A stretch of 64,000 bases of DNA, from NCBI RefSeq assembly GCF_030013205.1, contig NZ_CP122648.1; one strand, given 5' to 3'. Numbering within the stretch: the first letter of the stretch is position 1; each line of letters starts with the position of its first letter. Source of the DNA: Escherichia coli. GTDB taxonomy: Bacteria > Pseudomonadota > Gammaproteobacteria > Enterobacterales > Enterobacteriaceae. Made by a program: the position numbers. Shown here piece after piece: positions 20,501-23,500 of this stretch.

Positions 20501-23500
20501 TAGGAAATCTTAGGGGCTGGTTGACACTTTCCGGCTTAAGACCTTAACAAATCTTAACATCGCAGGTTGACACACTTGACACTTTTTCGCGAAAAACCTT
20601 ATCAAACCTTAGCATTTCTAAGCATGGCAACTTGACACTTTTCGCGATTTTTTCGGCTTTTTGACGTGGTAAATCTGGCGAAAGGCCAGTAATGGCGGGG
20701 CTTACAGCGAGGTTGACACTTTTTCGCGTTCAGAGTGTAAAGTGTCAACCTGGCAAGCTGCTCAACTTGACACTTTTTGAGGTCATTGATGGCCTGATTT
20801 TTCCCACTCAGCCAGGGCGTTTAGTCCGGCTTCACTCCAGTTATCCAGCTCATCGGGACAATCACCTGCAACATAGCAGAGCTCACAACGCAGCATACGA
20901 ATTGCCAGCCTGGCATTTTCCCGAAAATCATACTGCTCAAAGTAATATTGCCCAGCATAATCCTCAAGGCAGATAGCACCATCATCAAGAAATTGCACTT
21001 CACAGCATAGTTCCCCGGCTGCATCCTGTACACGCTGCTGTATGTCATTGTCCGTTACTGGTGCAGGGATTTTACCGTCTCTGGCCTTAACTGCTTTCCA
21101 GAACTCGCCCCACGTCATTTCCAGCGTTCTCTCTGGCCACATTTCAGAAACTGTGTCTTTTCCCTGTGCTGGTGGGCTGTTCCGCTGCTCTGTCGCTTCC
21201 ACATCGATTTTTTTACCGGACATGACCACTTCGCCTTTCTCGATCCAGTCGTAAACTGTCTGGCGGCTTACGCCTTTGTGTTTGGCATATTCTGCCTTGC
21301 TCATAAACATGACACTTCCCCTCAGACTGTATTAATGCGCCGGAAAGCGCGTGTATTTAAATCATCCCAGGAACCGTTGAGCACCAATTAGTTGCGCGAA
21401 GTAATCGGCACCAGCGTTCCGAACAATTTCCAACTTAACGTTCTGATCATTGTTTCCTGCTGCAGGGACAATCCCACGATTCATAGCCAGCGCCCGGATC
21501 ACATCTTCAACACTTACAGCTTTAGCGGCAGCACCATTTTCATGGTTAATAATGCCCTGAATTAGCTTTTTCATGACCTCAAAATTAGAACCATCGATTT
21601 TCTCCTTAACACCTAATCCGGTGTACTGAGAGAGATAGCTTTTATAGGACGATGTGTTATTTCCATCAGATGAAGGGGCATAAATATCAATAATCTGATC
21701 AATCGTATTTTTGCCGCGTTTCAGGTATAGCATTACCTGCCGATCTAAGGCGGCAATGCCTTCCAGCATCGTCGGGAAGCTGGCAAAACGGGCATTTGGC
21801 CCCGATTCCAGGGTAGCCCCTTTTTGTCCTGCGAAATTAAGATTTCCGGGATTGTTATTCCTGATCCCTCTGGATAAATATGCAGATCTGTTTACTTGAT
21901 TTGAAAATCCCTGCAATCCTCCAGGCCAGACCTTACCCGGATTGTTTTTTTGCCACTCCTGCACTTCGTTAAAATAATCAAAGTTGAAACGCCCCTCCAG
22001 CCCTTTCATTTCCTCACTGGTGGTAGGTGTGTCATTTGTAGGAATAGCCAATCCAGCTACTGTTCCGGCTGTAGCCCCAAGAAGACTTCCACCAACAACA
22101 CGGGCGGCAACTCCGGTCGTTGTGGCTGCCACAGCACCAACTCTCGATGGTCCAGCAAGTACTGCGGCCCCAAAAAGCCAGGGATGTTCAACCGCAAAAC
22201 CAACAAACCCGCTAAGTGCCTTAACAACCTTTGCAACGTTTTCGGCAAAATTGTTCAGGTCGTTATTAAAATCCGGGCCATTTACGTACTTACCAAGTTT
22301 ATCCAGCCCCGTTTCTACATCCGTCAGAATCCTTTTAAAGTTCTCACCATTCATGAAATTCAGGGCAGCATTCGTGGCACCATCAGACATTCTGATTAAA
22401 GCGTCTTCATTCCCCGCCATTGCTCCCTGAAATCCGCTGGTAAGCCGATCCCAGTTTTTTTCCAGGTTACTGGTAATATTCTGATATTTACTTGTATGTG
22501 CAGAGGTCAGTAACGAATCATTCTGCGCTGCACGTAACGAAAACTCTTTGTTGAGTTCAGGTATTTTGTCCTGATATTTGACTAACTGGTTAGTAAGACC
22601 AAAATTTACCCATCCAAGCCCCATTCCTCTGAAATTGCTCTGGGTAAGACCAGTTCCCTGATATTCCTTTGCCAGCGCTGCAACCTTTTTCAGGAATACA
22701 GGCAGGTTTTCAGTCGCGTTTTTATCAGGATTTAGCCCCAGATTAAGCAGGCCGACGCGGGCAGGATGCGATATATCATTTTGTGCTGCTGCCAGTGTAT
22801 TGAGCACATTGCCAACACCGGAAAAATAAGGCGAATAAGTGCTTTCTGCCGCCTTTAACTCTCCTGGCGTTGCCACCAGCTCATCTGCATTTTTCTGTTT
22901 CTCTACAACACTACGGGACATCATGCCAAAGCCAAACGGTCCGGCAACGCCCATAACCGAGAGTTTTGTTCCCCACGATACGGTTGTTTTAAACAGGTTG
23001 TTTAATCTTGAAGTGGTCGTCTGTAGTGTAGAATTGATCTGCTTGTAAGTTTTCAGCGTCTGTTGGGCATTTTTCCCCAGCCCGCTGAGATACTTATCAA
23101 ACATCGTTTCGCCGCGACCTTTATAGTTGCTTACGAACGAATCTGCTGTTTTTCCGCTGCCGACAAAGCGCCCTTTTTCGTCCCTCACTCTCCCGGATAC
23201 ATCCGGTCCTGTCCGACCAGATTTTGCCGCCACGGGTAAGCCTGCCCCCACGCTGCGCCCACTTTGCCCCGGTATTTTCATCGGCGTTCCGGCAGGGCCG
23301 ATCATCAGCCCGTTGCGATACTTTTCAAAAATTGCCTCAAGCCGTTTGAGGTGTTCTTCATTAACGTCCAGCGTCAGAACTGGCATCTGATTACCTGACA
23401 TTACAATACTCCTGCGGGATTTTTGAATTTGAGCAGCTCACGAAACTGAGCTGCTGTTTTTACATTCAGACCGGAATCTGCACAGATGTCTCTGAATCCG

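Follow-up and report, generated by a model that had tools for sequence, protein, structure and literature searches.

The 64-kb stretch of Escherichia coli DNA analysed here (the window) contains a 13.2-kb satellite of the PICI type beside tRNA-Pro, in which an array of TTGACAC repeats adjoins the gene for a 175-residue winged-helix protein. For the array, the best interpretation is that of recognition sites derived from cosB and belonging to a packaging-specificity protein of Rpp/TerS type. The repeats are predicted to be R-type sites (core TTGACAC) for the 175-aa protein, with which they would jointly form the packaging-specificity module of the satellite, a reading to which we assign a probability of about 0.58. 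The most likely role of the TTGACAC copies would be that of docking sites for the adjacent small-terminase-like protein, as part of the helper-capsid packaging signal. We infer binding, a packaging role and any contact with the helper terminase from the sequence comparisons described below.

As expected for a PICI, the island combines an integrase (int), an AlpA-type regulator (an alpA-like gene) and a replicase with an origin (RepA with its own iterons) within 10–20 kb, carries att repeats and has no full virion set. An Icd-like gene is also present. The 175-aa gene is the last backbone gene and lies at the distal end of the AlpA-controlled operon, the position of an Rpp-type gene. By arithmetic, three island copies amount to 39.5 kb, compared with 42.6 kb for phiP27. 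In an Rfam scan of the island, the tRNA alone passed, and no known sRNA was found at the array. The main features of the island are:

19552–19577, plus strand: att direct repeat at the distal island end, 26 nt, 96% identical to 32710–32735
19709–19790, minus strand: phiP27/HK97-type cos, with cosN GGGGCGGGCG at 19739–19748 and the terS-proximal side toward lower coordinates
20310–20489, minus strand: 59-aa ORF, ATG at 20489, with AAGGTG 6 nt before the ATG
20783–21310, minus strand: gene of the 175-aa protein, the presumed binder of the repeats
32710–32735, plus strand: att direct repeat beside the integrase gene and tRNA-Pro

The repeated motif TTGACACTTT is present in six exact copies, five direct and one inverted, and TTGACACAC is an additional, shorter direct copy. 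On both strands of the window, TTGACACTTT is confined to the array (20521–20782), and six exact 10-mers all fall within 20521–20776; about 0.12 matches to an exact 10-mer are expected at random in 128 kb. The array begins 1 base past the stop codon of the 175-aa ORF and ends 30 nt short of the ATG of the 59-aa ORF. The motif copies (A-sites) are spaced by 27, 55 and 81 bp and are interleaved with a second repeated motif, ACCTTAnnAAAnCTTAnn (B-motif), at 20497, 20541 and 20596:

20497–20516, plus strand: B-motif 1, ACCTTAGGAAATCTTAGGGG, with two TTAG/CTAAG half-sites 10 bp apart
20521–20536, plus strand: A-site 1, TTGACACTTTCCGGCT, the copy most distant from the HTH gene
20541–20560, plus strand: B-motif 2, ACCTTAACAAATCTTAACAT
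20567–20591, plus strand: A-sites 2a and 2b, a tandem pair of the short TTGACACAC (20567–20575) and TTGACACTTTTTCGCG (20576–20591)
20596–20625, plus strand: B-motif 3, ACCTTATCAAACCTTAGCATTTCTAAGCAT
20632–20647, plus strand: A-site 3, TTGACACTTTTCGCGA
20648–20712, no strand: 65-bp spacer free of A-sites, holding the conserved GGCCAGTAATGGCGGGGCTTACAG (CCATTACTGG on the gene strand)
20713–20728, plus strand: A-site 4, TTGACACTTTTTCGCG, the left arm of the inverted pair
20739–20750, minus strand: A-site 5, the sole inverted copy, AAAGTGTCAACC on the plus strand and GGTTGACACTTT on the minus strand
20767–20782, plus strand: A-site 6, TTGACACTTTTTGAGG, adjoining the stop codon of the HTH gene

The first-pass annotation had described six direct copies and one inverted copy within 264 bp, a count that both repeat finding and direct reading reproduce. 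Its placement of the array between the 3′ end of the HTH gene and a 59-aa ORF with a Shine–Dalgarno sequence agrees with the coordinates and with AAGGTG. The array is also distinct from the CCTCAC iterons, as had been proposed; the iterons form a separate cluster at 26797–27116 beside the RepA helicase gene. The B-motif was absent from that annotation. Its three copies make units of ~55 bp. In other genera, B-type motifs lie 7–10 nt after A-sites, and the B half-sites covary as a pair (TAAG, TGAG, TCAG).

The spacer element GGCCAGTAATGGCGGGGCTTACAG is kept in the arrays of E. coli, Pantoea, Raoultella and Enterobacter JUb54. In a lambda-type cosB, an IHF site lies among the R sequences; the best candidate for one here, found by eye, is TATCAAACCTTAG at 20600–20612, one base off the consensus WATCAANNNNTTR. 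The A-site doublet GTGTCAAgtGTGTCAA is also found in the island of the O104:H4 relative, with which homology breaks off exactly at A-site 1 (window 20519).

Across genomes, the motif is associated exclusively with one protein family. In 13 loci from other genera that were found via the protein, motif clusters lie directly 3′ of the gene in the same orientation order. A DNA-only scan of IMG/VR for TTGACACTTTT-N8-30-AAAAGTGTCAA returned 67 contigs, 65 of which encode a homologue of the 175-aa protein within ~100 bp of the motif; the remaining two contain an unrelated palindrome and a decayed gene copy, respectively. The array grammar, in which a single inverted site accompanies direct sites at set spacings, is kept in 75 distinct loci that represent at least ten enterobacterial genera. 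The family is found in Escherichia, Enterobacter, Lelliottia, Pantoea, Serratia, Raoultella, Yersinia, Salmonella and others, and the array architecture persists beside homologues at 30–40% protein identity. Measured from the stop codon, the sites hold almost constant positions (inverted site, +28, +54 and ~+127), and no feature of the array is better conserved between genera than the inverted site placed 27–28 bp from a direct one. Since order, spacing and motif are conserved in 75 loci together with an intact gene, the selected function would reside in the DNA sites themselves and not in the protein alone.

The module is kept in islands with three replication modules and two late-gene sets, and it borders the backbone and the variable cargo. 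In INPHARED, no phage DNA or protein homologous to the array and gene was found at standard thresholds; with no such phage encoding a homologue, no helper partner was identified. Nothing relevant came from literature searches on the motif, on the protein accessions, or on DUF2213 in combination with satellites.

The 175-aa protein is sequentially composed of a Nu1-class winged HTH (residues 1–44), a disordered linker (46–55), and a compact α/β C-terminal domain (~60–170). Over its first 45 residues, the protein shows homology to the DNA-binding domain (DBD) of a small terminase of the lambda Nu1 class that belongs to PHROG-57 (hhalign 96.6%, E 5e-10). The TerS used in this comparison is genuine, having a full-length family match and lying upstream of a GpA-type large terminase and near the portal. 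The DBD fold matches Xis, the TerS N-terminal domain and RppC, all of the Xis/TerS/Rpp winged-helix type. Residues 1–41, including the recognition helix, are nearly invariant, and overall protein identity falls to 33–36%. The nearly invariant recognition helix fits the unchanged DNA motif across homologues. Together, the DBD homology and the exclusive co-occurrence of motif and protein make binding of the array by the 175-aa protein likely.

The label "Nu1-type HTH" given in the first-pass annotation holds for the DBD, in both homology and fold, but the protein is not a complete small terminase. It has an N-terminal DBD of the TerS class and lacks the helical oligomerization core and the C-terminal TerL-binding region. 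The island contains no TerL gene. The C-terminal domain shows weak dsRBD/HPF-like similarity in the PDB, no significant match in BFVD, no similarity to terminase cores, and none to Rpp beyond the winged helix. The family profile gave no match at E ≤ 1 to PDB sequences, RppC (6hn7) included. PADLOC placed the 175-aa protein and its neighbours in no defence system. The 59-aa ORF is a shortened homologue of a 93-aa PHROG-1561 protein, which follows the TerS-like gene in a classical PICI. Both ORFs are annotated as hypothetical proteins in the RefSeq entry of ETEC4079, a 100% identical genome.

A classical PICI of strain BH100N shares with this island the cos and 0.4 kb of flanking sequence, at 80–91% identity. 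Precisely in the place of the 175-aa gene and array, it has a gene for a PHROG-141 "terminase small subunit" (DUF1441), and a PHROG-1561 small gene comes next in both islands. EcCIMP1 (PMC11773190) was considered as a described relative; it has PerC, Icd, DUF4222 and the cos type in common with the island and contains no homologue of the 175-aa protein.

A conserved stretch of ~170 bp with CTAAGTTACAGTTG lies beyond the array. A second copy, inverted, is located in the early regulatory region that separates alpA from the antirepressor gene. The stretch was considered as a cos, but has no phage match, and among E. coli genomes it was found in 19 only, in each of them once and at the island position, and thus has no prophage copy. 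A regulatory site is the more likely identity of the stretch.

In lambda, cosB has the order R3-I1-R2-R1 and is bound by the small terminase gpNu1. The array resembles lambda cosB in its several R copies of 10–16 bp, one of them inverted among direct ones, and in the adjacent gene for a Nu1-class winged helix, the presumed reader of the sites. At least three R copies, with at least one inverted, lie within a few hundred base pairs, as in a cosB. The two also differ in several respects. There are six or seven sites in 260 bp here versus three in ~120 bp in lambda, and the B-motif is interleaved here. The 175-aa protein is without the oligomerization and gpA-binding parts of gpNu1. The array lies 3′ of its gene in the opposite strand sense, ~770 bp from the nearest cosN, which is not of the lambda type. 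In all islands of this subfamily (HTH-175), the array is likewise 3′ of its gene and directed at it on the other strand, and no lambda-type cos block adjoins it.

The classical arrangement is found in a sister subfamily, HTH-19x, of Yersinia, E. coli and Salmonella. There, a conserved block TGGGTCCyTCC...ACGGGCATTGCGCGCC precedes 8–12 TTGACAC/TTGACAG sites, which occur in both orientations, and the gene comes after them. The TTGACAC repeats occupy the classical cosB position, between the cos block and the HTH gene, exactly as in lambda. They lie a few tens of base pairs from cosN on the first-packaged side and upstream of the presumed binder's gene, neither of which applies in the window. A spacer of ~70 bp likewise divides the arrays of the HTH-19x satellites and the helper's own cosB. 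The earlier proposal of a "cosB/pac-like recognition region" is thus supported in that the same motif fills the cosB slot of the sister subfamily, but the array in the window is not a canonical cosB.

In Yersinia, the satellite (L098/L102) is integrated inside the portal gene of a helper prophage, and a cos block of ~53 bp is common to the satellite and the region upstream of the prophage's own terS. Behind the shared block, the prophage has seven copies of a repeat of its own, ATGTCCCAC. Both the integration in a prophage and the shared cos segment are like those of helper-embedded PICIs (HE-PICIs; PMC10111431), whereas the window island is integrated near a tRNA gene and not in a prophage. 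The HE-PICI paper describes a cos segment shared with the lambdoid helper and no R-type array or dedicated HTH protein (PMC10111431).

The cos of the window island is of another type. Over 82 bp, the segment 19709–19790 is 87% identical to the site annotated as cos in phiP27 (E 8e-15), and it also matches the termini of Burkholderia phages. Positions 19709–19753 are identical to phiP27 at 45 of 45 nt, spanning the 10-bp cosN and the terS-proximal side. The gene order in phiP27 is HNH-cos-terS-terL, and the small terminase of phiP27-type phages belongs to PHROG 83, a family other than that of the array protein. With 45 bp of phage-identical cos, the helper's own TerS could use the site without an island factor. 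This is the sole recognizable cos of the island, and the array lies ~770 bp from it on the HNH/cosQ-proximal side. The lambda cosN GGGCGGCGACCT and the P2/P4 cos GGCGAGGCGGGGAAAGCAC were also sought in the window, and the island matches are not beyond chance. In the very close relative STEC346, the module is present and the phiP27-type cos is absent. In Pantoea, Raoultella, Enterobacter JUb54 and one uncultured IMG/VR contig, nothing like a known phage cos follows the array. Among the complete IMG/VR contigs checked for direct terminal repeats, the sole overlap was a 77-bp assembly overlap in one contig.

SaPIbov5-type islands copy the HK97-like cos of the helper and depend on the phage HNH endonuclease (cf. 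PMC5052747). The window island similarly copies the cos of an HNH-TerS-TerL-type phage (phiP27), including cosN and the terS-proximal side. Unlike SaPIbov5-type islands, which need no DNA-binding specificity factor of their own, it has an extra conserved module of HTH protein and array.

Rpp proteins heterodimerize with the helper TerS and redirect packaging to the PICI cosB. The cos of P4 and the cos–rpp pair of EcCICFT073 occupy the same kind of position, at the backbone/cargo border (PMC9026076, PMC6739421). The 175-aa protein is like Rpp of EcCICFT073-type PICIs in being a satellite protein of ~150–175 aa with a TerS-like winged-helix DBD that is not a terminase, in its operon-end gene next to cargo, and in its pairing with a satellite-specific recognition sequence unlike that of the helper (PMC6739421, PMC9026076). 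However, no sequence homology to Rpp was detected, the structural match is limited to the winged helix, and the C-terminal domain is another α/β fold. A review states that no repeated R elements are visible in EcCICFT073-type islands (PMC9026076). By comparison with the private cosB of those islands, the repeats here are explicit and numerous and the array is uncoupled from cosN.

These comparisons suggest that the module descended from a lambda-like arrangement of cosB and small terminase. A Nu1-class DBD would have been kept, with a recognition helix (VSRQTVYDW) and an R sequence that are particular to this module. An unrelated α/β domain would have replaced the part responsible for oligomerization and TerL binding, which would make the protein Rpp-like in that respect. 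In the proposed pathway, helper induction would lead to excision and replication of the island. Several copies of the protein would then fill the direct and inverted sites, probably bending or wrapping ~260 bp of DNA. The island DNA would thereby be marked for the helper terminase, directly or via a complex with the helper small terminase, and island concatemers would be packaged in preference to helper DNA. The actual cut in this island would be made at the phiP27/HK97-type cos (19709–19790), with the array ~770 bp off, on the side where the translocating terminase would near cosN. In lambda, shifts of a few base pairs in the cosN–cosB distance are already harmful (PMC9026076), which counts against the packaging reading, as do the placement of the array, the phage-identical cos of another type, the islands that keep the module without a recognizable cos, the C-terminal domain and the lack of a homologue among INPHARED phages. 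The distance and side of the array relative to cosN suggest that it may work from afar, come into play at termination, or serve a second helper of the lambda type.

An unlikely alternative, also named in the first-pass annotation, is that the array is an operator coated by the 175-aa protein acting as a transcription factor of the MerR/Xis/BldC winged-helix type. Cargo genes (here the 59-aa ORF, elsewhere defence genes) would be switched on or off, or insulated from late-operon read-through. The array does sit exactly where the last backbone gene gives way to variable cargo of the same orientation, which in O104:H4 includes an AAA ATPase + DUF4435 pair, and the HTH-19x arrays, directly upstream of their gene, could also autoregulate. 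The A-site motif holds a perfect −35 hexamer, so that a bound protein would compete with sigma-70. However, the array contains no promoter-like −35/−10 pair on either strand, TTGACA is oriented away from the cargo in all but one copy, and the gap between the last site and the nearest cargo gene ranges from 30 nt to more than 340 nt. An operator also leaves unexplained why the motif lies between the helper-shared cos block and the gene in relatives, and why the module is swapped for a small-terminase-like gene in the syntenic island. The arrays of P2 Cox boxes, BldC repeats and the pSK1 Par centromere consist of multiple short sites, mostly direct repeats, to which Xis/MerR-like winged-helix proteins with the same DBD fold bind cooperatively; by analogy, cooperative binding is presumed here. 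Those arrays differ in their contiguous, helically phased sites, compared with spacings of 27, 55 and 81 bp here, and they sit at promoters, attP or upstream of par. Their proteins show no sequence homology to the 175-aa protein, whose detectable homology is to a terminase DBD.

It is also conceivable, at rather low odds, that the HTH-175 protein and array are a new, helper-independent packaging-control module acting away from the cut site. In one variant, a nucleoprotein "landing pad or brake" at ~0.8 kb upstream of cosN would act on the helper terminase by loading or stalling it. A satellite whose HK97/phiP27-type cos is identical to that of the phage would then still be packaged preferentially, or cut at every 13-kb unit. 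In a second variant, the module would be a dual-helper device, in which the array captures a lambda-type (PHROG-57) TerS and the cos serves HNH-type phages. The dsRBD-like C-terminal domain would then be an adaptor to helper proteins, and the covarying B half-sites a second specificity determinant.

The module may instead be an orphan or re-purposed cosB, derived from packaging and no longer directing it, with the phiP27-type cos alone in use. It could then be a decoy or interference device that sequesters the small terminase of a lambda-type helper, or have no function. This is improbable. The missing lambda-type cos block beside HTH-175 arrays, the complete, phage-identical cos of another type, and a C-terminal domain unlike that of terminases are consistent with such a fate, and it is known that Rpp proteins act through the TerS DBD to block packaging of the helper (PMC6739421). 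However, site order, spacing and motif are strictly conserved in 75 distinct loci with an intact gene, and relatives that lack the phiP27-type cos still keep the module.

A centromere-like, copy-control or second replication site is very improbable. In this reading, the repeats would serve an episomal phase of the island as iterons or partition sites, and the HTH protein would bind them in the manner of the single-protein Par system of pSK1. One family member is a circular 12.8-kb contig with a 77-bp overlap from an isolate assembly. In addition, a search of INPHARED under relaxed thresholds matched 26 of 28 nt of the spacer to the RepFIB origin of P1-like phage-plasmids, between the iterons and the GATC/DnaA-box segment, at a borderline E of 0.08. 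However, the island has its own iteron origin beside RepA, and the module is unchanged beside RepA-helicase, primase or DUF927 replicases; an iteron origin would lie next to its replicase and covary with it. The array contains no AT-rich unwinding element, and no coiled-coil, ParA or ParM partner is present.

There is even less to recommend a role in recombination directionality, with the protein as the island excisionase and the array as arm-type sites of attP. The protein has weak HTH_17 and TIGR01764 "excisionase" matches, and the island end with the module is the one that joins attP on circularization, the module being ~0.3 kb from att in Pantoea. Arm-type sites would be expected at a fixed ~0.2–0.3 kb from the att core, but the distance is ~0.94 kb here and more than 3 kb with inserted cargo in O104:H4. 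The module also co-occurs with different integrases and integration sites (tRNA-Pro, smrA, and a third beside the paoD and LysR-family genes), an AlpA-type gene is already present next to int, and separate short repeats adjoin the att core.

Stacked promoters, in which TTGACA would be a real −35 box driving plus-strand transcripts antisense to the HTH gene, are scarcely credible despite six perfect −35 hexamers on a single strand and a weak terminator-like hairpin on the plus strand (20780–20795), because no copy has an acceptable −10 at 16–19 bp by scan or inspection, conservation covers GTGTCAA and flanking A-tracts and not promoter geometry, and the motif is oriented in the sense direction of the gene in relatives. 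A consensus scan of both strands found no sigma-70-like promoter inside the array, in line with the first-pass annotation, which saw no convincing −10 elements; its preference for a protein-binding array is strengthened by the conserved motif architecture beside homologues of the 175-aa protein. MerR-type 19-bp spacers were also sought by eye. Only the inverted pair gives TTGACA-N19-TAAAGT, which is not kept in other genera.

The choice of satellite DNA over helper DNA in Gram-negative bacteria is understood in one case only, that of Rpp and the private cosB of EcCICFT073-type islands, whose actual recognition sequence was never pinned down. If the packaging-specificity reading is correct, the new family would provide a widespread satellite lineage with an explicit, multicopy and easily mutated recognition sequence (TTGACAC) and an identifiable partner protein. 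It comes in two natural arrangements, with the array fused to a helper-type cosN or detached from it, as in the window. These arrangements make testable the grammar of R-sites, the action of a terminase DBD far from the cut, and helper swapping by satellites. The islands carry anti-phage cargo, such as the AAA ATPase + DUF4435 pair in the O104:H4 outbreak lineage, and knowledge of their packaging signal may be useful for predicting island spread and for building PICI-based delivery vehicles.

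The array is part of a 13.2-kb island with 26-bp direct repeats at its ends (19552-19577 and 32710-32735). The island adjoins tRNA-Pro(GGG), between yejO and yejM on the E. coli chromosome, and is 100% identical to that of the pig ETEC strain ETEC4079. The minus strand carries all annotated island genes but one, the exception being a YlcI/YnfO-family gene on the plus strand. The layout, listed below, is that of a Gram-negative phage-inducible chromosomal island (PICI).

Features of the island in gene order
Integrase and AlpA-type HTH genes, first in the order
Icd-like gene and DUF4222 gene
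RepA-family helicase gene, then CCTCAC iterons (26797-27116)
ProQ/FinO and PerC genes
Genes of a DUF2213 protein and a 679-aa lytic-transglycosylase protein
21310->20783, minus strand, gene of the 175-aa HTH protein
20782->20519, repeat array
20521, 20567, 20576, 20632, 20713 and 20767, starts of the direct TTGACAC-based copies
20739-20750, inverted TTGACAC-based copy
20489->20310, minus strand, 59-aa ORF
Stretch of ~730 bp with no annotated gene, from the 59-aa ORF to the att repeat
19709-19790, packaging site (cos) of phiP27/HK97 type, distal island end
19739-19748, cut site cosN (GGGGCGGGCG), the 10-bp cosN annotated in phiP27

Three further features were observed in the island. A 227-aa DUF2213 protein and a 195-aa protein (24080-25415) match consecutive parts of the 545-aa PHROG family 6216; what other elements carry as one gene appears to be split here. 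A hairpin with a perfect 9-bp stem and a T-rich tail on the plus strand (CAAACCTCAAATTTGAGGTTTG, 20181-20202) stands between the 59-aa ORF and cos, and is kept in the relative STEC346. Short repeats (CCGTTATG / GTTATC) and a ~40-bp block (GGATAACCCGTTATGGGAATCCCCATATCGGCATC) adjoin the att repeat at 19600-19700. A copy of the block is also found close to the end of the STEC346 island, whose integration site differs, and the repeats and block may be recombinase arm sites.

The array is real and highly non-random. Direct reading and repeat finding recovered in full the six direct and one inverted copies of the motif described in the first-pass annotation, and all six occurrences of the exact 10-mer TTGACACTTT in the window fall within the array. 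The annotation had also seen no convincing -10 elements at the right spacing, and a consensus scan of the array finds no promoter. A second motif, ACCTTAnnAAAnCTTAnn, starts at 20497, 20541 and 20596 and is interleaved with the three TTGACAC-based copies (A-sites) furthest from the gene, in units of ~55 bp. These B motifs (20497-20625) are each built from two 5-6-nt half-sites, 10 bp apart, that co-vary between clades and units (CTAAG/CTAAG, TTAAG/TTAAG, TTGAG/TTGAG and TTCAG/TTCAG). The co-variation points to either a second specificity determinant, itself variable, or a site for a host factor. An array spacer (AGGCCAGTAATGGCGGGGCTTACAGCGA, 20683-20710) matches the RepFIB origin of P1-like phage-plasmids at 26 of 28 nt (E 0.08), in the part that separates the iterons from the GATC/DnaA-box region; the core of the spacer, CCATTACTGG, is kept in the arrays of four genera.

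The 175-aa protein has only weak HTH_17 and excisionase matches in Pfam and NCBIfam, and its best PHROG is 57, 'terminase small subunit', over residues 1-42 only. In its AlphaFold model (pLDDT 87.8), residues 1-44 form a winged HTH, which a disordered linker joins to a compact α/β domain. The C-terminal domain modelled alone reaches a pLDDT of 94.2 and has weak dsRBD/HPF-like matches only, with no terminase-like structure for it in PDB or BFVD. The protein is not a member of the small terminase (TerS) family: the oligomerisation and large terminase (TerL)-binding parts are missing, and the island has no terL gene. No INPHARED phage encodes a homologue, and literature searches found no paper describing the family, hereafter HTH-175, or its motif. 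Homologues occur in Enterobacterales only; residues 1-41 are nearly invariant among them and the remainder drifts, with overall identity falling to 33-36%.

The array is strictly tied to this one protein family. The search for the motif beside similar genes, proposed in the first-pass annotation, was run both ways. At 13 loci of other genera fetched via the protein, the motif clusters just past the stop codon and is scarce elsewhere in 12 kb; the orientation order is unchanged and B-type motifs come after the A-sites. In the reverse test, which used DNA only, IMG/VR was scanned for the inverted pair TTGACACTTTT-N8-30-AAAAGTGTCAA. The pair was found in 67 contigs, 65 of which encode a 175-aa homologue within ~100 bp; the remaining two are an unrelated AT-rich palindrome and a locus with a decayed gene copy. 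Over 75 distinct loci, the positions of the sites relative to the stop codon are almost fixed.

The module formed by gene and array marks a border. All conserved gene clusters lie upstream of it and nothing downstream is conserved; in E. coli relatives, homology to the window stops exactly at the last repeat (20519) and unrelated cargo follows. In the O104:H4 outbreak lineage (2011C-3493, locus positions 703-2659) the cargo past the array is an AAA ATPase and DUF4435 pair, which we take to be the composition of the PARIS anti-phage system. The module is kept across RepA-helicase, primase or DUF927 replicases, and across two late-gene sets. From the protein-motif linkage, the fixed spacing, the border position and the independence of the module, we infer that the array is bound by the 175-aa protein and is part of the island backbone.

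An element, CTAAGTTACAGTTG, is present 300-450 bp past the array in most relatives (6922-6934 in the relative locus L013, 2889-2901 in the 2011C-3493 locus, and most IMG/VR loci) and absent from the window. It recurs inverted between alpA and an antirepressor gene in several islands (for example at 10308 in L071), and is probably a regulatory site common to the early region and the cargo border. L071, a family member from an isolate genome in IMG/VR, is a separate 12914-bp contig whose 77-bp terminal overlap corresponds to a ~12.8-kb circle, suggesting an excised or episomal form in that culture.

The module occupies a slot that a TerS-like gene holds in a syntenic PICI. The end of the classical capsid-encoding PICI of strain BH100N is homologous to window positions 19601-20021, at 80-91% identity. 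Upstream of that counterpart, BH100N carries a PHROG-141 'terminase small subunit' (DUF1441) gene and then a 93-aa PHROG-1561 gene; the window has the 175-aa gene and array in the same slot, then the 59-aa ORF, which retains both ends of the 93-aa protein. The module thus stands where a small-terminase-like gene would be, in a packaging region ending at cos, and this gene order supports a putative packaging role. Directly beside cos, BH100N (L106, 7100-7390) has an insert of ~290 bp relative to the window, with three inverted TAACCCGCA copies, an AT-rich stretch, three direct copies and one further inverted copy. The insert looks like an iteron origin or another array of R-type repeats, and its partner may be the DUF1441/PHROG-141 TerS-like protein.

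The same motif is in cosB position, that of the terminase-binding site, in a sister subfamily. This subfamily of 194-196-aa proteins came up among the motif matches (~32% identity over the aligned N-terminal ~120 residues). In Yersinia, its element opens with an integrase gene, the beginning of which overlaps the final bases of a prophage portal gene, carries AlpA, Bro-N, DUF4222 and a RepA-type AAA_25 helicase, and ends with a TTGACAC array and then the HTH gene. It belongs with the helper-embedded satellites described in PMC10111431. The satellite array, upstream of the HTH gene, contains at least eight direct sites and two inverted ones, and a ~53-bp block (TGGGTCCCTCCTGCGACyTTTGTAATGTACGGGCATTGCGCGCCGTGCAGTTT) stands in front of it. 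This block is also found upstream of the prophage's own terS, where the prophage's own repeat, ATGTCCCAC, follows it. Seven ATGTCCCAC sites, in both orientations, are located ~200 bp upstream of the 188-aa terS and constitute the helper prophage's own cosB. Their order is two direct, a ~70-bp spacer, two inverted and three direct, the same repeat grammar as in the satellite arrays.

The prophage TerS is a full-length PHROG-57 protein beside a GpA-type TerL. The DNA-binding domain of this TerS has homologues in the N-terminus of the 175-aa family (hhalign 96.6%, E 5e-10), whose DNA-binding domain is of terminase ancestry, and in the 194-aa protein (39% over 66 residues). The recognition helix reads VDRKTVSRW in the prophage TerS and VSRQTVYDW in the 175-aa family, a difference that parallels the change of repeat. 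The order of cos block, TTGACAC array and gene recurs in chromosomal satellites of E. coli and Salmonella; by this order in the three genera, the repeats of the sister subfamily form a predicted satellite-specific cosB adjoining a helper-type cos block. The same logic was shown experimentally for Rpp and EcCICFT073 (PMC6739421).

The island contains a phage-type cos, of another type. No lambda-type cos block was found beside any HTH-175 array. Over 82 bp, the window cos shares 87% identity with the site annotated as cos in the Stx2e phage phiP27, with 45 of 45 positions identical at 19709-19753, which spans the 10-bp cosN and the terS-proximal side; the termini of several Burkholderia phages match the window cos as well. 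In phiP27 the order is HK97-like, HNH-cos-terS-terL, with a TerS from another family, PHROG 83. On the island gene strand, in the phiP27 orientation, the order is HTH gene, array, 59-aa ORF, 0.5 kb, cos and att, so that the array is ~770 bp from cosN, on the side packaged last. The arrangement in the window is not a canonical cosB, from which it departs on two positional counts. The close relative STEC346 has the module and lacks the phiP27-type cos.

The same cos type is found in BH100N and in EcCIMP1 of E. coli MP1, by alignment at about 2150-2250 of the latter locus (L029). EcCIMP1 is a published PICI with phage Kapi1 as its reported helper, and the accessible part of that paper does not mention a cos site (PMC11773190). 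Three copies of the island add up to 39.5 kb, near the 42.6 kb of the phiP27 genome.

The array probably comprises packaging-recognition sites, at a probability of about 0.58. The cosB/pac-like region that the first-pass annotation named beside an operator array gains from the cosB position in the sister subfamily and from the TerS slot; in the window the array is not placed as in a canonical cosB. At 770 bp from a cos of another type, the array might exert its effect from afar, come into play at termination, work with a second helper of lambda type, or serve as an interference decoy. Lying at the cargo border, it might instead be a purely transcriptional operator array controlling the cargo, which we regard as unlikely given the TerS slot. 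An orphan or decoy cosB is more doubtful again. Centromere/replication, excision and promoter readings, each at odds with at least one defining feature of its class, share the little that remains.

For the packaging reading, the array-protein pair was likened to lambda cosB/gpNu1 and to the Rpp/cosB pair of E. coli PICIs; the 175-aa protein showed no sequence homology to Rpp. According to a review of PICI cos sites, these have no visible repeated R sequences (PMC9026076), whereas the repeats of this array are explicit. The complex of the 175-aa protein with its array would give the island DNA a packaging identity.
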